Assembly (NCBI GenBank): GCA_963676565.1
Contig: OY781089.1
Span: forward strand, 1,152,001 to 1,216,000
From: Halarcobacter sp.
GTDB lineage: Bacteria; Campylobacterota; Campylobacteria; Campylobacterales; Arcobacteraceae
DNA length: 64,000 bases
Direction of reading: 5' to 3'
In this document: positions 33,596-43,420 of the stretch, piece by piece
Layout: each line of letters starts with the position of its first letter
Numbering within the stretch: the stretch's first letter is position 1
Notes under the pieces: generated by a model
What the model was told of the DNA's origin: nothing
The model's input: the letters and a program-made list of their open reading frames with translations, nothing else
The model's database searches: none
Program-made: the position numbers and the translations under genes

Positions 33596-36460
33596 TTGAA
33601 TATTATAAGATTAATAATCTTTTCTTTACTCCTTACCACTGAACTTTTCTCATCTCAAAACTTAGAAAAAGTAACTTTACAATTAAATTGGAAATATCAA
33701 TTTGAATTTGCAGGTTTTATTGCTGCAAAGGAAAAAGGTTTTTATGAAGATTTGGGTTTAGATGTTCAAATTAATGAGTTTGCTGGAGATATTAATGTAA
33801 TTGATGAAGTTAAAAATGATAGATCTACCTTTGGGATTTATGATACCTCATATTTAAATCTTTATGATCCCAAAAAGCCAATAGTATTAGTTGCTAATTA
33901 TTTCAAAAAATCTGCTTTAGTTTTCGTAACAAATCAAGATATTGTTGTTCCTGAAGATTTAAAGGGTAAAAAAGTAATGTATTTAAAAAATGAATTAAGA
34001 GATTCATTACTTGGAGAGCTATTAAAAAAACATAAAATAAAAGAAAGTGATCTTATCCCTATAGACCATGATTTTACAGGCGAAAAGTTTATAAATGGAG
34101 AGGTTGATGCTTTTTCTGCTTTTGTTTCAAATGAACTTTATCATGTAAAAAAATCACAAGTACCATACCGAATTATTGACCCTCAAAATTATGGGATTAT
34201 TGGCGGTGGTCTAAATCTATTTACTTCTTATAATAATGCCAAAAAAAATCCAATCATGGTACAAAAGTTTTTAGATGCAACTAACAAAGGATGGGATTAC
34301 GCCTTTGAAAATAAAGAAGAAATAATAGATATAATTTTTGAAAAATATTCAAAATTAAAGTCAAAGGATGCTTTATTATTTGAAGCAATTGAGACTGAAA
34401 AATTGATGATGACAGGTATTTATAAAATAGGTGAGGTTATTGAAAATGTTGTTAATCAAGATATTTTAAGATCACATGTTAATATCTCCATTTCCAAACT
34501 TCTTTTTAATAAGATTTTTACCTATGACAACATAGATTTTTCAGAAAAAGAAAAAAATTATATAAAAAAGAAAAAAGAGATTAAAGTATGTATTGATCCA
34601 AGTTGGATGCCATATGAAATGTTTAGTGAAGATGGGAAACATATTGGTATGACAGCTGATTTTCTTAAATTGATTTCTGAAAAAACAAACCTTGAAATAA
34701 ATACAGTTCTTACAAAGTCATGGTCTGAATCTTTAGAGTTTGCTAAACAAAGAAAATGTGATATTCTTTCCCTTGCACAAGAGACACCCTCAAGGTTAAA
34801 GTATATGAAGTTTACTAGTTCATATATTAACTTTCCAGTTGTAATTGCAACTTCAACAGAAAAACTTTTTTTGCCAAATCCTGAAGAGATTATAGAAAAA
34901 GAGAAAGTTGGTATTGTAAAGGGATATTCTATGGGAGAATATTTAAAAAATAAATACCCAAATAATAAAATTGTTGATGTAGATAATATAAAGCAAGGAC
35001 TTGAAAAGGTTCAGTCTGGTGAACTATATGGTTTTGTAGATTCTTTACCAACAATTGCCTATCTACTCCAGCAAGAATTTATTGAAAGTTTAAAAATTAC
35101 TGGTAAATTTGATAGAAAATTTGATTTAGGAATTGCTGTTAGAAATGATGATGAATTCTTATATGAAATAATTCAAAAAGCTGTGGATAGTATTCCTAAT
35201 TCAACTATGCAGGAGATTTTTAGTAGATATATTTCTGTAAAGGTTGAAGAATCAGATGATTATAAATATTTATTTGAGATTTTAGGAGTATTTTTTATTA
35301 TTATAATAATTGCTTATTTTAGAAACAGACAATTAAAAAAATATAATGATATACTAAGTAGAACTCAGAAGAAATTAGAAACCTCACTGGAAAGTTTTGA
35401 AAAACTTTTAGACTCAGTAAATGAAGGAGTCTTTGTATTTGATGAAAATGGAAAATGTTTACAGTCAAATAAAATCGCAGCTGAGCTTTTTGGTTTTGAA
35501 AATAAAGAACAAGTAACAGGACAACATATAAAAGATTTAGTTAGCCCTAAATCATATGCTTTAGTACTTGAAAATATAAAAAAAGACCTAGAAGAAGCCT
35601 ATGAAATTGTTGTACAAAAAAGAGATGGAGAAGAGTTTCATGTTCTTGCAAAAGGGAAAGATGCTATTTTAGATTCAAAAAAAGTGAGAATCTCATCTGT
35701 TCTTGATTTATCCGAGCTAAAACAAAAAGACAAACTTTTATCACAACAATCAAAAATGGCAGCTATGGGTGAGATGATTGAAAATATAGCCCACCAATGG
35801 AGACAACCTTTAAGTTTAGTTTCTAGTATCTCAACTGGAATAATTGTAAAAAAAGAGTTAGGTGTATCAGATTTTGATGATGAAAAGAAAGACTTAGAAA
35901 AAATTAATGACACTGCACAACATCTATCTCAAACTATTGAAGATTTTAGAAATTTTTTCAAATCAGACAAGGAGAAAAAAGAGTTTTCAATTTTAAAATC
36001 AATAGAAAAAAATCTTATGTTAATTGAGGGGATATTAAAAAGTAATAATATTCAAATCGTTCTTGGTCAAAAAGATGATTGTAAAATTAAAAGTTATGAA
36101 AATGAATTTACACAAGCTTTATTAAATATTTTTTATAACGCAAGAGATGTTTTAATAGAAAAAAGCTTAGAAGAAAAATTCATTTTTATTAATGTGCAAT
36201 CAAATAAAGAAAACATTGTTGTAACAGTATTAGATAATGGTGGTGGAATAGAAAACAGTATTATAGAAAAAATATTTGACCCATATTTTACAACTAAACA
36301 CCAAGCACAAGGTACTGGAATAGGTCTTTATATGACCCATCAAATTATTGAAAAACATATGGGTGGGAAGATTATTGTAGAAAATGAAAAATTTGAATAT
36401 AATAATATAAAATACAAAGGTGCAAAATTTAGTATTTATCTACCTACAAAAATGGAGTAA
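33596..36460 (+). CDS. Hybrid sensor histidine kinase (NMT1/THI5-like SBP, PBPb, TM, PAS, HisKA/HATPase)
   Basis: [23 protein letters not shown] (NMT1-like); [10 protein letters not shown] (PBPb); [23 protein letters not shown]. Confidence 0.9.
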
Positions 36461-36464
36461 AGAT

Positions 36465-39400
36465 TTAAATTTCAAATCCTATTAGAGCTATATCATCATT
36501 TCTTTCAAATTCACCTTGATACTCCATCATCTCATAAAGAAATATCTCTTGTTGTTTAGCTAATGGTAGTTCATAATTATTTTCTATAATTTTTTTAAAT
36601 CTTCTTTTTCCAAATGGAAATCCTTTTTCCCCTCCATTCTGATCTAAATACCCATCCGTTGTGATATAAAATCTCATCCCTTTAGTTGCTTCTATAGTAT
36701 ATTCTGTAAATTTATAGTTTTTATTAGATTTTTTATATCCAATAGATTGTCTATCCCCTTTTAAAACATTTATTACTCCATCTTCTTCATAGAAAAGAGC
36801 TATCTCTGCTCCTGCATATTTAACTATATTGTTTTTTCTATTGTAATATAAAATTCCTCCATCAAATCCAGCATTAGAAATAGATGATTCATCATCTTGT
36901 TTTAATAGATGTTTCATACTTTTGTTAAAAATTGATAATATTTTTGCAGGACTTACAATCTCATCAGTATTTTTTATATTCGATATAATTTGTCTTTCTA
37001 TTGCTTTTACTAACATTGTTACAAAAGCACCTGGAACTCCATGTCCTGTACAATCAATTACCATTAGAATACATTCATCTTCATCTCTTAGCTCTTCAAA
37101 TAAATATATATCTCCCCCTACAATGTCTTTTGGATGCCAAATTGCAAAATAATCATTAAAATAGTTTTTAAAAGAAGAGTTTTCAGGAATTAATGCATGT
37201 TGTATTAAAGAAGCATATTCAATACTATCTTTCATTTGTTTATTGATTAGCTTTATCTCCTTTTCGATATCTTTTTGTTTTGTAATATCAACAACCATTC
37301 CAATATATGCATCTTCATCTTTATATTTAATAGGTTTAACTGAAAGTAAAGCAATAAACTCTTTTCCTGAATTAGTTTTGTATCTTTGTTCTAAATTTTC
37401 AACATAACCATATTGTTGCATTTTAGATAAAATTTCATCTTTTTGATTTAAGTTTGTATACACAGTATCTATTGATTTTCCTATTAGTTTTTCAACAGCT
37501 ATTTCATATTGTATTGATGAGTATTCATTTGCATATAAAATTGTTCTATCTTTTTTTGAAGTTATCAACACAGGAAGCATTATATTTTCAAGAATAATCT
37601 CAATTTGTGCTTTCTGCTCTTCTAGTTCATATGTTCTTTCTTCAACTTTCAATTCTAGATTTTTACTTAAATCCTCAACAATTTTTCTATTAGTAATATC
37701 TTGACTTATTGCTTTATACCCTATATGATTTGAGTTGCTATCATAATCTAACTCTATTTTTGAATAAAGCCAATAAGCAGTACCATCTTTTTTTATATTT
37801 TTTATTTCACCTTCCCAAATCTCACCATTTTTTAAACTTTTCCAAAGTTCCTTAAATAGTTTTTGAGGCATATCAGGATGCCTTACAATATTGTGAGCTT
37901 TACCTACTAGCTCTTCATTAGAATAACCTGAGGTATTACAAAATGCGGTACTTACTTTTGTAATAATTCCTTTTTTATCAGTATTTGAGAAAATTACATT
38001 TTTATCTAAGGATATTAACGTATTTTCAAGTTGTTCTTTTTGTTTTTTTATGTCTGCAGTTTTTTTATCAACAAGTTGCCTTAATTTTTTATTCCAATAT
38101 ACGATAATTGATACGATAATTAAGATTATAATAATTACTGGTAATACATATGATAAAACTTTTTTAAGAGAAAAACCTTTGTTTTCTTCAACTTTTACTT
38201 TAACCCAGCCATTATAAATCTTTTCTCTATCTTTTTCAGATATTGTTTTAAAAACTTTATTTACTATGGAAAGCAATTCTGGCATTTTTGGATTTATTAG
38301 GTAGTGATGGTTAAAGTCTTTTCCTGTTTGACCAGTTAATTTAAGATTATCTTTTCCTATTTTCGAAATATTATAAAGTGCAGGAGCAATATGCCCTATA
38401 AATACATCTGCTTCATGGTTTGATACTTTTAATAAAGCTTCAAAGATACTTCTTGTTTCTATTATTTTAATATCAGGATATAAGTTTTTTAAATAATTAT
38501 AGCTTGTATAGTATTTTGGTATTGCAAATACTTTATCTTTAATCTTATTTAATGACTCAACATAGTCTATAGTATCATTTGTAACTATAACCATTGGATA
38601 AGAAGCATATTTATTTGAAATAAGTCCTAAAAGGACTTCTTCTTTTGAATCACCAATTCCAGGAACTAAATCTATTTCACCATTTTTAAATTTTTCGAGT
38701 ACATCAGGCCAAGAGTTAGAAGGTACAAATTTAAACTCAATACCTGTAGCTTCTGATACTAAATTTAAATAATCTCCCATAATACCTGACATTGAATCAT
38801 TTTCAATAATTGATAAAGGTTTCCAATTTATTTCACTATATTTAACTACTATTTTTTTATCTAGCCATTGATACTCTTTTTTACTAAAATCAATTTTTCT
38901 TTTTTTGTCAAACCATTTTAATTTAAGTTCATCAATATCTTGAATCGATATTTTTTTCATTGCTTTTTTTAATATAGAGTGTAATTCAGGTGCATCATTT
39001 CTAACTGCAATATATAAATTTTCCATCTCGGGATCATCAGCTTTTACATCAGCAGTATATTTTAATCCCTTAATCACATTTTCTTGCATAATATTGTCTA
39101 ATATGGCTGTTTTACCTAAAGTAGCATCGACTTCTCCATATACTACTGCTTTTATACTTTCTAAAGTGTCATTATATGTAAGAATTTCAATTTTGGGGTA
39201 TTTGTCTTTTAAATATTTTTCATATATAAAACCTTTTATAACAGATACTTTTTTGCCAAAAAGTGATTCAATATCTGTTATATCATTTCTATCATCTTTT
39301 GTTAATATTGAAGTTACATTTCTTGCATAAACACCTACATAAGAGAGTTTTTCTTCTCTGTCTTTAGTCCTTGCAATGTTCATCATAACATCAATTTCTT

Positions 39401-39977
39401 TGTTATATGCCTTATTTAGAGATTCATTCCATGTTCCAGTGATAAACTTTACTTTAAATCCCGCAATTTTAGATAGTAAGTTTATATAATCTATAGAGTA
39501 ACCAAGAGGTAGATTATTTTTATTAAAGTTAAAAGGAGCCCAATCGTATTCATTATGAACTTTTATTGTAGGGTGCTTGGTAAGCCAGTTTTTTTCTTCT
39601 TTTGTTAGTTCTATTCTAATGTTTTGTTTATTTGAACAAATATCCATTTTACCTATTAATTCATCTTTATGGGTAATTTCATATGTTTCTTTTTTACATT
39701 CTATTTGGAGATGTCCTTCATCAAAATTTTCTTGTACAATTTCATGTTCTCTATTTTTATATAAAAACAAAAATCTTTTGTTTGTCAAAGAATCATATAG
39801 CGTAATATATTTGATTTGATCATTTTTACTCATATGATTTTTTAAAATATTAATCACTTCATTTTCATCTAATACATAAAATGGACTAGCAATTTGATTA
39901 GCTATATCTTTGTTTGTAATTATGGCAAATGAGCTAGAAAATATAAGAATAATTGTTAAAAATATTTTGAGTATCAT
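36465..39977 (-). CDS. Membrane-bound SpoIIE/PP2C phosphatase with two PBPb and two PAS domains (SiaA-like)
   Basis: HNEYDWAPFN and SEINWKPLS PBPb domains; TM; PAS with HNIVRHPDMP; PP2C motifs PKDIVGGDIY, DCTGHGVPGA, TDGYLDQNGG, RNDDI. Confidence 0.88.
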   Translation of the reverse strand: MILKIFLTIILIFSSSFAIITNKDIANQIASPFYVLDENEVINILKNHMSKNDQIKYITLYDSLTNKRFLFLYKNREHEIVQENFDEGHLQIECKKETYEITHKDELIGKMDICSNKQNIRIELTKEEKNWLTKHPTIKVHNEYDWAPFNFNKNNLPLGYSIDYINLLSKIAGFKVKFITGTWNESLNKAYNKEIDVMMNIARTKDREEKLSYVGVYARNVTSILTKDDRNDITDIESLFGKKVSVIKGFIYEKYLKDKYPKIEILTYNDTLESIKAVVYGEVDATLGKTAILDNIMQENVIKGLKYTADVKADDPEMENLYIAVRNDAPELHSILKKAMKKISIQDIDELKLKWFDKKRKIDFSKKEYQWLDKKIVVKYSEINWKPLSIIENDSMSGIMGDYLNLVSEATGIEFKFVPSNSWPDVLEKFKNGEIDLVPGIGDSKEEVLLGLISNKYASYPMVIVTNDTIDYVESLNKIKDKVFAIPKYYTSYNYLKNLYPDIKIIETRSIFEALLKVSNHEADVFIGHIAPALYNISKIGKDNLKLTGQTGKDFNHHYLINPKMPELLSIVNKVFKTISEKDREKIYNGWVKVKVEENKGFSLKKVLSYVLPVIIIILIIVSIIVYWNKKLRQLVDKKTADIKKQKEQLENTLISLDKNVIFSNTDKKGIITKVSTAFCNTSGYSNEELVGKAHNIVRHPDMPQKLFKELWKSLKNGEIWEGEIKNIKKDGTAYWLYSKIELDYDSNSNHIGYKAISQDITNRKIVEDLSKNLELKVEERTYELEEQKAQIEIILENIMLPVLITSKKDRTILYANEYSSIQYEIAVEKLIGKSIDTVYTNLNQKDEILSKMQQYGYVENLEQRYKTNSGKEFIALLSVKPIKYKDEDAYIGMVVDITKQKDIEKEIKLINKQMKDSIEYASLIQHALIPENSSFKNYFNDYFAIWHPKDIVGGDIYLFEELRDEDECILMVIDCTGHGVPGAFVTMLVKAIERQIISNIKNTDEIVSPAKILSIFNKSMKHLLKQDDESSISNAGFDGGILYYNRKNNIVKYAGAEIALFYEEDGVINVLKGDRQSIGYKKSNKNYKFTEYTIEATKGMRFYITTDGYLDQNGGEKGFPFGKRRFKKIIENNYELPLAKQQEIFLYEMMEYQGEFERNDDIALIGFEI

Positions 39978-40687
39978 TTAAGAGGCTTTATATATTCGTT
40001 AATTAGTTTTATAGTTTCATCTGAAACATTTTTTGAACAAATTAGATATCGTTTATTTCCCTTTGGTATATTTTTTACACTAAAAAATTTTAGATCATTC
40101 ATTGCTTTATTATTCAATAAAATTTTTGCTTCTTCTTCTGAAATAAATAAATAATCAGCCCTTTTTGCAACAATCATTGAAAGCATTTTTTTATTATTAG
40201 TATAAACTTCTTTTTTTATTGTTTTAAAGTTTTTTATTTTTTCATCTAAAAAAGAACCATATGAGTAAGAAGCTTTAGAAAGTAAGCTTAAGTTTCTATT
40301 TTTCAATAACTTATCGATTGGAATATTTTTTAATATATTTTCATTCTCTTTTCTTGAGATTATTCCTAAAGGCATGTCTTGATATAAAGGAAGTGTGAAT
40401 TTTGCAAATTTTTCTCTTTGAGTATTTTTAAACCAGCCTACAGCACACATTTTATTTATATTAGCTTCTATCTCATACAAGTGTCTTTTTGATGGCTTTT
40501 CTTTTAATTCATATTTTATTTTAGAATATTGTAATGCTTTTATTATGGGAGTAGCTACTAGGCCTTTAATTGAATCTGAATATTTTTCTACATAGGGTAC
40601 TCTTTCTTCGTATGCAATAATTAAAGAGTCTTCTGCTTTTAGTAATGTTATAAAAAGTATTGTTAAAAAGAAAAATATTTTAAACAT
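39974..40687 (-). CDS. Periplasmic substrate-binding-type protein, coupled to the SpoIIE gene
   Basis: Signal peptide; YEERVPY, P.KR, GWFKN.QRE.FAKFT.PLYQD, RADY; ATGA overlap with the downstream start. Confidence 0.75.
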   Translation of the reverse strand: MFKIFFFLTILFITLLKAEDSLIIAYEERVPYVEKYSDSIKGLVATPIIKALQYSKIKYELKEKPSKRHLYEIEANINKMCAVGWFKNTQREKFAKFTLPLYQDMPLGIISRKENENILKNIPIDKLLKNRNLSLLSKASYSYGSFLDEKIKNFKTIKKEVYTNNKKMLSMIVAKRADYLFISEEEAKILLNNKAMNDLKFFSVKNIPKGNKRYLICSKNVSDETIKLINEYIKPLK

Positions 40688-40822
40688 ATTGAACCTTTAT
40701 TATGAAATCATATTATAAATTATATAAAAAGTAATTATAATATGATATTATTTATTATACAAAAGTTGAATTAAAGCTTACTTTTGTAATTATTAATTAT
40801 AAAAGTAAAAATAAGGTAGCTT

Positions 40823-41002
40823 GTGAAATTTTTAATTGTTGATGATTCAAAATTGCTAGAAAAAGTTTATTTTTATATTTAAATGAATTAAACTATATGA
40901 TTTTAAGTGAGCTAATTGATGGATATAATGCAATAAAAAAGTTATTATAAAACCCTTTTCAGTAGAAAATTAAAAGAATCTATTGATGAGATAAAAGGTT
41001 AA
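40823..41002 (+). pseudogene. Decayed CheY-like single-domain response regulator
   Basis: Not in ORF track. GTG start after AAGG; successive frames give MKFLIVDDSK / IARKSLFLYLNELNYMILSELIDGYNAIKK / VIIKPFSVE / KLKESIDEIKG*. The central half, including the phospho-Asp, is absent. Confidence 0.75.
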
Positions 41003-41005
41003 AAA

Positions 41006-41560
41006 ATGAATATAAAAATAATTCAAGATATAGTAGAAGAAGACGGTATTATTTTCTTAACGTATGGTGGTTTTCTTTCTCAATCATTAATCTCTTCAAT
41101 GATGGAAGCCTTGGAAAAAGAAGCAAAAGAACGTGACTTAAGTTTGGGTATTGCAAGTAATATATTTACTATTTTTATTGAATTAACACAAAATATGATG
41201 AATTATTCAAAGAGTAAAAGTATTGATTGTGAAGAATTAAAACCACAAGGTTTGATTGTGGTTACAAAAGATTTAGAAGAAAATTACTTTATACACAGTC
41301 AAAATATAATCACACAAAAAGATAAAGATAAAATTCAACCAAAATTAGAGGAATTGGTAAGTTTAACTAGAGATGAAGTTAAGAAAAAATATAGAGAATT
41401 AAGAAGAAGTGGTAAAGATAAACATGGTCAAGGGGGAGGAATTGGCTTTTATGAAATCGCAAAAAGAAGTGATGAAGTAAAGTTTAGTTTTAAGGAAATA
41501 AATAAAGATAAGTTTTATTTCCATTTTATTGCAAAAATTGTTACAAGTAAGGAGAAATAA
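41006..41560 (+). CDS. siaB: SiaB-family protein kinase (GHKL anti-sigma-like fold)
   Basis: LTYGGFLSQSL, IFIELTQNMMNYS (N-box), GGGIGFYEIAKRS (G-box); adjacent to siaC. Confidence 0.85.
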   Translation: MNIKIIQDIVEEDGIIFLTYGGFLSQSLISSMMEALEKEAKERDLSLGIASNIFTIFIELTQNMMNYSKSKSIDCEELKPQGLIVVTKDLEENYFIHSQNIITQKDKDKIQPKLEELVSLTRDEVKKKYRELRRSGKDKHGQGGGIGFYEIAKRSDEVKFSFKEINKDKFYFHFIAKIVTSKEK

Positions 41561-41563
41561 TTA

Positions 41564-41941
41564 ATGGAGAATTTAATAATTGAGGAGACGAAATATACAC
41601 CTTCTATAAAACTAGATGTTGAAAAAGGACTACTAGAGCTTGTTGGGAAATCATATCCTGAAAATACTTTTGAGTTTTATAAACCAATGTTAGAATGGGT
41701 TGAAAAATATTTTGAAATAAATGATAAAAAAACTGTTGTAAATATGGAAATTATTTACTTCAATTCAAGTAGTTCAAAACTATTTTTTGATTTTTTCGAC
41801 CTTTTAGAAGATGCACACAATAATGGTAAATCTATTGAGGTAAATTGGATTTATGATGCAGAAAATGAAAGTGCATTAGAAGCGGGAGAAGATTTTAAAG
41901 AAGATTTTGAAGAGTTAGAATTTAACTTAAAAGAAAAATAA
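41564..41941 (+). CDS. siaC: SiaC-family phospho-switch protein (DUF1987)
   Basis: IEETKYTPSI, GKSYPENTFEFYKP, YFNSSSSK, VNWIYD.EN, E.GEDF.ED. Confidence 0.9.
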   Translation: MENLIIEETKYTPSIKLDVEKGLLELVGKSYPENTFEFYKPMLEWVEKYFEINDKKTVVNMEIIYFNSSSSKLFFDFFDLLEDAHNNGKSIEVNWIYDAENESALEAGEDFKEDFEELEFNLKEK

Positions 41942-41955
41942 TTATTGGAAATAAA

Positions 41956-42750
41956 ATGCATGCAAATGAAAATAAATTAATTTTAGAACTCCACGAATTA
42001 CAAGATAATTTTAAAAAAACAACTGATAGGTTGATTAAAGATATTAATCGACATGATAAAATTATGGCTCAAAGTGACAAAAGACAAAAACAAGAGTATG
42101 ATGCCTTACAAGATAAATTAAAAGAGGTTGAAGCTTTAAGTAAAGAGATAGAAGAAACTCAAAGAGAAGTTGTCTTTACAATGGGTGCAATTGGAGAAAG
42201 TAGAAGTAAAGAAACAGGAAATCATGTAAAAAGAGTAGCAGAATACTCAAAATTATTAGCTTTATATTATGGATTAGATAAAGAAGAGGCTGAGATGTTA
42301 AAACAAGCTAGCCCTATGCATGATATAGGAAAAATTGCTATTCCTGATGCGGTTTTAAATAAACCAGGGAGATTTAATGAAGAGGAAAGAAAAATCATGG
42401 ATACCCATGCTCAATTGGGCTATGACATGTTAAAACACTCAAATAGACCTTTACTAAAATGTGCATCGATAGTTGCCTATGAACACCATGAAAAATGGGA
42501 TGGTTCAGGATATCCAAATAAATTAAAAGGTGAAGAGATTCATATTTATGGAAGAATTACGGCAATTGCTGATGTTTTTGATGCTTTAGGAAGTGATAGA
42601 TGTTATAAAAAAGCTTGGGAAGATGAAAGAATTTTTAATCTCTTTAAGGAAGAGAGAGGGAAACATTTTGATCCAAAATTAGTAGATATCTTCTTTGATA
42701 ATTTAAATGAATTCTTAAAAATTAGGGATGAATTAAAAGATGAGTTTTAG
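41956..42750 (+). CDS. HD-GYP c-di-GMP phosphodiesterase with N-terminal coiled coil
   Basis: ETGNHVKRV, MHDIGK.AIPDAVLNKPG, HHEKWDGSGYP, GRITAIADVFDAL.SDRCYKKAW, HFDP. Confidence 0.92.
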   Translation: MHANENKLILELHELQDNFKKTTDRLIKDINRHDKIMAQSDKRQKQEYDALQDKLKEVEALSKEIEETQREVVFTMGAIGESRSKETGNHVKRVAEYSKLLALYYGLDKEEAEMLKQASPMHDIGKIAIPDAVLNKPGRFNEEERKIMDTHAQLGYDMLKHSNRPLLKCASIVAYEHHEKWDGSGYPNKLKGEEIHIYGRITAIADVFDALGSDRCYKKAWEDERIFNLFKEERGKHFDPKLVDIFFDNLNEFLKIRDELKDEF

Positions 42751-42907
42751 AAAATAAAATCTTAAGTACTTTTTTTAATCTCTCCACTTTATCCCCACTA
42801 TTTTTTTATACACTTAAAAAGTATTTTACTCTGTTGATTTTGGTCATTTATACTTTTACTTTAATTTAGATATAATCTTACGATTTAATCATTTACAGGA
42901 AATTTCA

Positions 42908-43420
42908 TTGGAAAGAAAAAACAATATAATATTAATTGGATTTATGGGCGTTGGAAAGGGAACAACTGCTAGAGCATTAGTTAAAGCATCTGAGTATTTT
43001 GCTATCGATACAGATGATTTAATTGAAAGTCTTGAAAAAAGAGCTATTAAAAAGATTTTCAAAAAAGAGGGTGAAGCTTATTTTAGAAATCTTGAAAAAA
43101 AATGTGCTTTATGGCTTGAAAAAAATGTTGATAATACAATTATTTCAACTGGTGGAGGTTTCTTTAGACAAGAAAATATCCACAATATTGGAAAAGTAAT
43201 CTATCTTGAATCAAGTTTTGAAGGGATTTTAAGAAGAATCAATAAATCACCAAATGCAAAAGCAAAACTTAGGAAAAGACCACTTTTAAAAGATTTAAAA
43301 GAGGGTAAAAAACTTTATGAACAAAGAGTAGAAGATTATAAAAAAGTTGCCGATGTAATTGTAAATGTGGAAGATAAAGATATTGAAGATATCGTAAAAG
43401 ATATATTAGGAAAGATATAA
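42908..43420 (+). CDS. aroK: Shikimate kinase
   Basis: LIGFMGVGKGT, DTD.LIE, GEAYFRNLE, ISTGGG, RPLL. Confidence 0.95.
   Translation: MERKNNIILIGFMGVGKGTTARALVKASEYFAIDTDDLIESLEKRAIKKIFKKEGEAYFRNLEKKCALWLEKNVDNTIISTGGGFFRQENIHNIGKVIYLESSFEGILRRINKSPNAKAKLRKRPLLKDLKEGKKLYEQRVEDYKKVADVIVNVEDKDIEDIVKDILGKI

Follow-up and report, generated by a model that had tools for sequence, protein, structure and literature searches.

The SiaABC partner switch is known from one organism, Pseudomonas aeruginosa, and with one output, the activation of a cyclase that leads to aggregation. As reported for that system (PMC8457831), the phosphatase SiaA removes and the kinase SiaB adds a phosphate on the small protein SiaC, and only unphosphorylated SiaC binds the cyclase SiaD. 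SiaC grips conserved motifs on the parallel stalk helices of the SiaD dimer, placing its residue T68 between the two stalks, where it forms hydrogen bonds with S82 and Q86; SiaC phosphorylated at T68 does not bind (PMC8457831). SiaD requires dimerization for catalysis. Here we describe a locus of a Halarcobacter species in which counterparts of siaA, siaB and siaC accompany a gene encoding an HD-GYP domain in place of the gene for the GGDEF-domain cyclase SiaD. The locus lies in a stretch of 64,000 nucleotides, hereafter the window (C1:1152001-1216000 of a complete, single-contig 3.34-Mb genome), and close SiaC homologues are labelled Halarcobacter by their source records. We think it likely that a SiaABC-type partner switch encoded at this locus controls an HD-GYP phosphodiesterase of bis-(3'-5')-cyclic dimeric GMP (c-di-GMP), with SiaC docking on the stalk of that enzyme.

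Several related systems have been described. PMC8457831 cites HsbA-HsbD of P. aeruginosa and BgrV-BgrR of Sinorhizobium, in which a kinase and a PP2C phosphatase likewise toggle a small phosphoprotein that binds a c-di-GMP enzyme rather than an anti-sigma factor; those systems have canonical STAS proteins and cyclase outputs, unlike the DUF1987/SiaC protein and predicted phosphodiesterase found here. Closer in phylum and cluster type are clusters of Campylobacterota (mBio 2022, PMC9239204) for which it was proposed, from co-occurrence, that a PP2C phosphatase with a periplasmic sensor and a STAS-type kinase regulate "a c-di-GMP turnover enzyme" via a STAS protein. That paper likens the cluster to SiaABCD and states that experimental verification is lacking; its available text does not name an HD-GYP output, SiaC/DUF1987, a phosphosite or a docking motif. 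PMC8457831 suggested that DUF1987 proteins modulate adjacent proteins. For the enzyme, the closest described protein is PmGH of Persephonella marina (4mcw; PMC4159591), a tri-iron GAF-HD-GYP protein in which a long helix before the catalytic domain mediates dimerization and the two HD-GYP domains of the dimer do not touch. Stand-alone HD-GYP proteins are rare in a survey of HD-GYP architectures (bioRxiv 10.1101/2021.11.05.467447), in the available text of which the words "partner", "coiled" and "neighborhood" do not occur. A preliminary description of this DNA, made from the sequence alone, had named no characterized example of the arrangement; its novelty stands in so far as our literature search, which left out subscription papers, found no experimental study of a siaC/HD-GYP pair, and falls in so far as the cluster type had been proposed in general terms in 2022.

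A Sia-type gene set linked to an HD-GYP gene

Like SiaABCD (6k4e, 6kko, 7e6g; PMC8457831), the locus encodes a SiaA-type PP2C phosphatase, a SiaB-family kinase, a SiaC with an N-[T/S]-S loop and an output protein whose stalk carries the motif R..K[VI]...SD[RK].Q....D. It differs in that the output has an HD-GYP instead of a GGDEF domain, the acceptor residue is Ser instead of Thr, siaA is divergent and accompanied by an extra gene, and SiaA, SiaB and SiaC each score below their NCBIfam equivalog cut-off. The preliminary description had read siaB, siaC and the HD-GYP gene as an operon with gaps of 3 and 14 nucleotides, which the coordinates bear out (Table 2). It had also placed the phosphatase gene divergently from this operon: the opposite strand is correct, but the two are not directly divergent, because a gene for a small solute-binding protein (SBP)-like protein sits between siaA and siaB. 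This gene overlaps the start of siaA by 4 nucleotides, so that the divergent unit consists of the SBP-like gene and siaA, which are transcribed together. All four families that had been named for checking, SpoIIE, the SiaB family, DUF1987 and HD-GYP, were matched by hidden Markov models (HMMs), and the family models together with HD_5 agree with the description of a Sia-type switch with an adjacent HD-GYP output instead of the SiaD cyclase.

By Pfam, the SiaA-like protein contains SBP_bac_3 (two stretches), Phosphonate-bd, PAS and, at residues 966-1168, SpoIIE (61.4 bits). It thus has two periplasmic solute-binding domains (SBP_bac_3/Phosphonate-bd), and its translation shows an N-terminal hydrophobic segment and a second one near residue 610. 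The SiaA model NF038263 matches residues 903-1169 with 250 bits over model positions 399-656 of 658, which is the PP2C part only; the equivalog cut-off of 700 is not reached because the sensor part, here with two periplasmic solute-binding domains and PAS, differs. The protein therefore has a SiaA-like domain and is not a full-length equivalog. Its last 271 residues match the PP2C domain of SiaA (6k4e_A, 7.3e-54), with identical letters in the aligned stretches vGGDiy, iDCtGHGvPGA, tDGylDQ and nDDi. We take the GGD, DCxGHG, DG and DD within these stretches to be the metal-binding motifs of the PP2C family. The SpoIIE, NF038263 and 6k4e_A matches uphold the membrane PP2C phosphatase with intact motifs that had been described.

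The kinase scores 129.7 bits against the SiaB-family subfamily model NF038262 (cut-off 85) and 107.5 bits against PF19788/DUF6272, and it matches SiaB itself (6kko_A, 5.9e-13); with the equivalog NF038264 it scores 79.2 against a cut-off of 225. SiaC scores 149.7 bits with PF09345 (cut-off 24.5) and 127.9 with the equivalog NF038265 (cut-off 150). Its alignment with P. aeruginosa SiaC (6kko_C, 5.1e-25) is ungapped, and the contact residues named in PMC8457831 (I71, M75, D79, R103, L107, E110 and D114) land on the right letters of 6kko_C, so that the numbering of the window's SiaC equals the native numbering.

Residues 65-72 of SiaC read YFNSSSSK, as first described, and N67-S68-S69 faces N67-T68-S69 of the P. 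aeruginosa protein. Ser68 is therefore a predicted hydroxyl phospho-acceptor at the T68 position. Neither N67 nor S68 varies among 21 Campylobacterota SiaCs, two of them with GGDEF neighbors, or among 42 HD-GYP-linked SiaCs. The Ser phosphosite of the preliminary description thus holds as an alignment with T68. It is not special to the HD-GYP form: the idea that Ser marks this form was rejected, Ser being present in 21/21 Campylobacterota SiaCs including both GGDEF-linked ones. Among the other SiaD-contacting residues of SiaC, Y31, Y65, N67, S69, D79 and D114 are kept, and E110 is replaced by Asp.

Profile searches of the whole genome found SiaC and SiaB in single copy and one SpoIIE match over the cut-off, that of the siaA-like gene, with one more below it at 23.5 bits. 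The grouping of the genes is not a chance juxtaposition, and the pairing of the switch parts is thus unambiguous; a confusion of partners by another PP2C or SiaC system of the genome was considered and rejected. The same genome holds 47 GGDEF and 9 HD_5 matches. As first noted, no GGDEF gene lies in the window (0 of the 47 matches in the genome-wide search); the nearest are at 1150209-1150667 and 1222185-1222613.

To see whether relatives keep the arrangement, 41 genomes (G000, that of the window, and 40 relatives) were searched with the HD-GYP protein, and six window proteins were placed by tblastn on 31 loci. All 13 short orthologue loci (open frame of at most 290 amino acids; L003-L013, L021 and L024, the window excluded) have siaC upstream on the same strand, and none of 16 long-paralogue loci (360-699 amino acids) has siaC within its 1.5-kb flanks. 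Three of the loci, L011, L013 and L024, have a SiaA match immediately upstream in the same orientation. At L011 and L013 a SiaB match stands between SiaA and siaC, which gives the P. aeruginosa siaABCD order with the HD-GYP gene replacing siaD; at L024 tblastn found no SiaB match at the locus. About 1 kb separates siaC from the HD-GYP gene at L009, L012 and L021, and at L009 and L012 this space holds an open reading frame (ORF) of 300-311 amino acids. Such ORFs between siaC and the HD-GYP gene occur at L036:587-1486, L053:3889-4788, L054:3887-4786, L009:530-1429 and L012:573-1505; they lack the docking motif described below, and the three that were scanned have no Pfam match.

At the level of the phylum, SiaC was found in 16 of 401 sampled Campylobacterota genomes, the window's included, and Pfam was run on 96 ORFs of 21 loci, the window's excluded. 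An HD-GYP gene, the commonest neighbor, lies near siaC in 11 of these 21 loci: it adjoins siaC or a siaB-siaC pair in ten (L032, L034, L035, L038, L039, L042, L043, L047, L050 and L051) and is one gene away in L036. Two loci (L033 and L046) have a PAS-GGDEF neighbor, and the other eight have housekeeping or other signaling genes.

A species-wide pattern scan, with one genome per species and the 21-sequence SiaC alignment, confirmed at least 551 relatives. We examined the best 80, a sample that leans towards SiaCs resembling the window's, and classed neighbors with our own HMMs built from Pfam-checked sequences. In 37 of these best 80 of at least 551 loci, siaC is followed directly by an HD-GYP gene; in 7 more the HD-GYP gene comes second, and in 1 it lies upstream. 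A GGDEF gene follows directly in 4 and some other gene in 24, and 5 loci have no further gene on that strand or stop at the contig end. The remaining 2 have no called SiaC ORF; in one of them (L098) a 265-amino acid HD-GYP ORF follows the SiaC match. Outside Campylobacterota, carriers of the pair in this set include Gammaproteobacteria and Gallionellaceae, with Colwellia, Methylomarinum, Methylococcaceae, Marinobacterium and Oceanospirillaceae among them.

In a Pseudomonadota sample of 401 genomes centered on that of L098, SiaC occurs in 67 genomes. Of 91 matches, 30 loci were examined, with GGDEF as the neighbor in 8 and HD-GYP in 1 (L162), a share that may be an undercount because five genes after siaC are cut at the locus end. 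These five (L143, L149, L152, L153 and L158) extend over 491-496 amino acids, and the three scanned are GAF proteins. At two other loci of this sample (L148:2516-3358 and L161:2735-3349) a DUF3369 protein, also cut at the locus end, follows a siaD-like cyclase. Thus, the HD-GYP form is usual in Campylobacterota and a minority in Pseudomonadota. The linkage that had been postulated from one locus is conserved in these surveys; the siaC/HD-GYP arrangement is common, not rare. In a FastTree phylogeny of SiaC (144 rows; 20 of 134 branches starred) the label "HD-GYP next" changes 21 times, against 45.4 when shuffled, and is therefore clustered, related genomes sharing labels; this tree does not separate one origin of the linkage from many.

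The HD-GYP enzyme and its stalk motif

The HD-GYP protein matches HD_5 (PF13487) with 120 bits and has the signature residues H122-D123 and G185-Y186-P187. Its best solved match is PmGH (4mcw_A, 2.2e-65, ungapped over 204 residues), and V-cGAP3 (5z7c_A) matches at 3e-36. The tri-iron ligands of PmGH are E185, H189, H221, D222, H250, H276, H277 and D305 (PMC4159591). With the 4mcw_A chain index equal to the native number plus 6, these eight fall on E86, H90, H122, D123, H151, H177, H178 and D206, all of them kept here and at least 90% conserved in 42 orthologues. K225 of PmGH (K126 here), the GYP residues, I294, D308, R314 and K317 are also kept. We therefore regard the protein as a predicted c-di-GMP phosphodiesterase. 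It differs from PmGH in having no GAF sensor, the helix forming its entire N-terminus and carrying a SiaC-type motif. Elsewhere, tandem arrangements of two siaC and two HD-GYP genes for proteins of about 450 amino acids occur at L035 and at L032 and L047, which lie about 3 kb apart in one genome; in each of these HD-GYP proteins a weak HD match precedes a full HD_5 match, an order resembling the two-domain layout of V-cGAP3.

An AlphaFold2 model of the window's HD-GYP protein (mean predicted local distance difference test (pLDDT) 87, predicted template modeling score 0.72) shows residues 7-82 as one continuous helix of 76 residues, the stalk, with block pLDDT values of 64-90. In the 42 orthologues, R32, I36 and D41 of this stalk do not vary, and conservation is 90% or more at S40, Q44 and Y48. 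Comparison with solved structures of the first 80 residues, either of this protein or of a SiaD-like cyclase, returned nothing relevant; a match to the SiaD stalk surfaced with residues 30-120 of L131.

According to PMC8457831, the SiaD stalk contacts SiaC through R74, K77, V78, R80, I81, S82, D83, R84, Y85, Q86, M88, R90 and D91. Residues 32-49 of the HD-GYP protein, RHDKIMAQSDKRQKQEYD, stand in register with native residues 74-91 of SiaD, RLEKVARISDRYQQMMRD (7e6g_A, chain index equal to the native number plus 1). Six pairs are identical (R74/R32, K77/K35, S82/S40, D83/D41, Q86/Q44 and D91/D49) and two conservative (V78/I36 and R84/K42). All six conserved positions of the HD-GYP stalk are SiaD contact positions; five keep the residue or a conservative substitute, and Y48 faces R90. 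The shared motif is thus a candidate dock for SiaC.

We counted a strict form of this motif, [VILM]xxxSDxxQ, ahead of the catalytic domain (Table 1). It is present in 52 of 58 SiaC-adjacent HD-GYPs overall. Two SiaC-adjacent GGDEFs (L146 and L154) have two copies about 32 residues apart, as in SiaD. The long HD-GYPs, the HATPase_c proteins and the adenylate cyclase played no part in defining the motif. By Pfam, the 12 motif-bearing "other" neighbors include nine HATPase_c proteins, five of 314-355 and four of 691-718 amino acids, and one class III nucleotide cyclase. The 18 motif-bearing control ORFs comprise, by our own models, 7 HD-GYPs, 2 GGDEFs and 1 PP2C, together with 8 ORFs of 310-331 amino acids, four of which, those covered by the Pfam scan, are HATPase_c proteins; the remaining 263 of the 281 lack the motif.

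Table 1. Occurrence of the strict motif [VILM]xxxSDxxQ; the count for short HD-GYPs is partly circular, because the pattern was written after those sequences had been seen
Group of proteins	With motif
Short HD-GYPs directly downstream of siaC	43/46
Long (~450 amino acids) HD-GYPs downstream of siaC	9/12
GGDEFs downstream of siaC	6/11
Other genes downstream of siaC	12/40
SiaB proteins downstream of siaC	0/12
Other ORFs of the 80 loci (at least 150 amino acids, N-terminus seen)	18/281
ORFs of this genome, motif anywhere	18/5131

Our own HMMs, run on 5131 ORFs of at least 60 amino acids from the Halarcobacter genome, found 46 GGDEF and 8 HD-GYP ORFs, and among these 54 the motif adjoins the catalytic domain in the window's HD-GYP alone; in one cyclase LPYDSDGSQ stands 137 residues ahead of the domain. 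A fuller pattern with two basic positions matches 1 of the 5131 ORFs, again the window's HD-GYP, and a search of the genome with an HMM of stalk residues 1-62 yields no second protein at E up to 10. The closest paralogue type (L014, 525 amino acids) is 82% identical over residues 49-262 and has nothing alike before residue 49, so that it lacks the motif; no siaC lies near its gene at that locus. A paralogue in the window's own genome (C1:533614-534258) is 78% identical over the same span. The 525-amino acid protein (L014:574-2151) has an N-terminal part of about 310 amino acids without a Pfam domain, and the identity of 78-82% to these paralogues exceeds that to SiaC-linked orthologues of other families (63-75%). 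Comparison of these sequences suggests a recent swap of the N-terminal module between HD-GYP paralogues within the lineage.

The motif also appears in other proteins of sia clusters. HATPase_c proteins of 313-355 amino acids with an N-terminal II[KR]xSD[KR]QQ near residue 45 lie downstream of siaC at L071, L074, L081, L084 and L099, and the same type stands between PP2C and siaB at L072, L086, L094 and L101. Clusters with both a motif-bearing kinase-like protein and an HD-GYP suggest branched outputs of one SiaC. At L115:3967-4992 a class III adenylate/guanylate cyclase directly after siaC has VTRVSDNQQ at residue 69. At L065:1157-2569 a 471-amino acid PP2C of a sia cluster has VIRMSDKQQ at residue 50; in some sia systems the phosphatase itself may use the same dock.

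A complex of two HD-GYP and two SiaC chains, predicted with paired alignments of 42 rows, gave an ipSAE of 0.60 (runs 0.60, 0.63 and 0.53), and the best of three controls gave 0.07. Agreement between the runs extends to at least 92% of contacts, and partner pLDDT is 88 or more. In calibration, 116 of 157 solved complexes and 2 of 215 mismatched pairs reached the pass mark; values of 0.60 or less were found for only 18 of the 157 solved complexes and for both mismatches that passed. Our prediction differs from the calibration in its use of our own alignments and of copies of each chain, and its pass may reflect memory or likeness because a like complex, 7e6g, is solved.

Proposed control of the enzyme and competing explanations

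In the mechanism that we infer from these observations, the SiaA-like phosphatase would sense a periplasmic ligand via its two solute-binding domains, perhaps aided by the small SBP-like protein, and a cytoplasmic cue via its PAS domains. Two SBP domains together with an extra SBP-like protein make a periplasmic small molecule the likely input; the SBP-like protein may be a periplasmic co-sensor or ligand-binding partner of the SiaA sensor. The phosphatase would dephosphorylate SiaC at Ser68, and the SiaB-family kinase would re-phosphorylate it. Unphosphorylated SiaC would dock on residues 32-49 of the HD-GYP stalk, probably clamping a parallel stalk dimer as on SiaD, and phosphodiesterase activity would change; phospho-Ser68 would block docking. 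If SiaC activates the enzyme, signals that switch the phosphatase on would lower c-di-GMP. Between the two signs we lean slightly towards activation. This preference is an analogy and not a deduction, because SiaD needs dimerization whereas the HD-GYP domains of PmGH do not touch.

A number of points weigh against a SiaC-controlled phosphodiesterase. Three residues of SiaC are changed (R103 and I71 to Ser, D29 to Lys), and five of the 13 SiaD contact positions (R80, I81, Y85, M88 and R90) differ in the HD-GYP stalk, which has one motif where SiaD carries two. SiaD, the short HD-GYP family and three SiaC-adjacent GGDEF stalks had already been inspected when the motif pattern was drawn up, and 6 of the 58 adjacent HD-GYPs lack its strict form (3 have TDxxQ and 3 none). 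The SiaC:HD-GYP complex, a prediction of which the preliminary description had listed as a check, received the verdict "weak support" at its ipSAE of 0.60. The siaA gene is divergent here, its co-regulation with siaBC being read from relatives, and our literature search found no binding, phosphorylation or enzyme study of the HD-GYP protein or an orthologue. The sign of control has evidence on neither side: the reversed logic that the preliminary description had thought possible is not decided by the sequence, and SiaC may activate or inhibit.

The same architecture and docking would also serve inhibition, for example if SiaC held the stalks of the dimer in a register that keeps the enzyme inactive. 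In that case c-di-GMP would rise with unphosphorylated SiaC, as it does in P. aeruginosa, and the switch would keep its logic instead of inverting it. All of the docking evidence fits this equally well, the sequence does not fix the sign, and dimerization is not obviously needed for HD-GYP catalysis, unlike that of the cyclase. The only solved precedent, however, is activation by stalk stabilization (PMC8457831), and at L070 and L120 both the HD-GYP and the GGDEF of one cluster bear the motif, an arrangement that would make less sense if the two were pushed in the same c-di-GMP direction, although this is a weak argument. On balance we regard an inhibitory SiaC as a serious but rather unlikely alternative. 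Improbable, in our estimate, is a role for the HD-GYP protein other than, or beyond, c-di-GMP hydrolysis, whether as a weak or inactive enzyme that serves as an adaptor or as one that prefers another cyclic dinucleotide such as 3'3'-cyclic GMP-AMP (cGAMP). The residue that raises this question, and a further point against the favored reading, is Ser84, which is invariant in the 42 orthologues and faces D183 of PmGH, the proposed general acid, whose D183A variant is inactive (PMC4159591). Of the D183/K225 pair near the leaving group, only the K225 side is retained (K126). The cGAMP-specific V-cGAP3 likewise has Ser at the aligned position and an acidic residue three positions earlier, as here (E81), which can be read both ways: it likens the protein to a cGAMP enzyme, and it shows that Ser84 is compatible with an active one. 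Against a loss or change of activity stand the eight metal ligands, K225, GYP and the substrate-contact residues R314 and K317, all kept, the far better match to the active c-di-GMP enzyme PmGH than to V-cGAP3, and the 47 GGDEF matches of the genome, which mean that c-di-GMP is certainly made.

We hold it very improbable that the true target of SiaC lies elsewhere, be it a GGDEF or another protein, and that the HD-GYP gene is merely co-transcribed. The genome does have 46 GGDEF ORFs, several of them short, and the strict motif is missing from 5 of the 11 GGDEFs that adjoin SiaC in other genomes, so that its absence does not exclude a target. The adjacency of siaC and HD-GYP genes is, however, kept across families and phyla, and the near-identical paralogue without the motif has no siaC. 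A SiaD-like GGDEF elsewhere in the genome had been named as what would overturn the proposal; the SiaD-type motif stands beside the catalytic domain in 0 of the 46 GGDEF ORFs and beside no other HD-GYP domain, and the stalk HMM finds no second carrier.

With an HD-GYP protein as its predicted output, the locus is a widespread, uncharacterized variant of the Sia switch with a testable docking rule. The surveys suggest that in Campylobacterota the three proteins of the switch more often have an enzyme of c-di-GMP degradation as their output, that the connection appears to run through the docking motif of the SiaC-SiaD crystal structure, and that the motif also marks kinase-like and cyclase neighbors of SiaC in other genomes. 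A broader idea, to which we give even chances, is that SiaC is a general plug-in regulator of a portable [VILM]xxxSDxxQ stalk motif grafted onto at least four types of signaling enzyme (HD-GYP phosphodiesterases, GGDEF cyclases, histidine-kinase-like ATPases and class III nucleotide cyclases); c-di-GMP breakdown would then be driven by the Halarcobacter switch, which would mirror the Pseudomonas biofilm switch. If this idea is true, the target of any SiaC switch could be read from sequence; its confirmation would supply a sequence rule for the targets of hundreds of uncharacterized SiaC modules, and a natural make/break pair of one switch with which to study how stalk clamping controls enzyme activity. 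The residues singled out for mutation are S68 of SiaC and R32, I36, S40, D41 and Q44 of the enzyme.

Features and surroundings of the locus

The features of the locus are collected in Table 2. The SBP-like ORF matches TIGR02285 at 52.9 bits, which is under the cut-off, and SBP_bac_3 weakly; a counterpart lies in the same divergent position in the relatives L004 and L006.

Table 2. Features of the Halarcobacter sia/HD-GYP locus, in positions of the window
Feature	Position	Strand	Size or residues	Basis or remark
siaA-like sensor phosphatase	36465..39977	-	1170 amino acids	Pfam and NCBIfam
PP2C catalytic domain of the SiaA-like protein	36471..37271	-	residues ~903-1169	NF038263 and 6k4e_A
Small SBP-like protein	39974..40687	-	237 amino acids	TIGR02285 family
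Divergent intergenic region	40688..41005		318 bp	Between the SBP-like/siaA unit and the siaB-siaC-HD-GYP unit
siaB-family Ser/Thr kinase, DUF6272	41006..41560	+	184 amino acids	NF038262, PF19788, 6kko_A
siaC phosphoprotein, DUF1987/SiaC	41564..41941	+	125 amino acids	PF09345, 6kko_C
Ser68 codon of siaC	41765..41767	+		Aligns with phospho-acceptor T68 of P. aeruginosa SiaC
Predicted HD-GYP phosphodiesterase, long N-terminal stalk helix then catalytic domain	41956..42750	+	264 amino acids	HD_5, 4mcw_A, AlphaFold2
Stalk helix of the HD-GYP protein	41974..42201	+	residues 7-82	DSSP on the AlphaFold2 model
Proposed SiaC-docking motif, RHDKIMAQSDKRQKQEYD	42049..42102	+	residues 32-49	In register with SiaD stalk 74-91

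The setting has a G+C content of about 24-32%. A promoter scan of 40500-43100, where it is about 26%, gave 18 promoter-like sites against 16.3 expected, and a scan of the same segment gave no terminator-like site on the + strand. Next to siaA and convergent with it, at 33596-36460 on the + strand, lies a gene whose ORF ends 4 nucleotides from the end of the siaA ORF. It encodes a 954-amino acid sensor histidine kinase in which the periplasmic domains are NMT1/THI5-like and SBP_bac_3 and which also has PAS, HisKA and HATPase_c.

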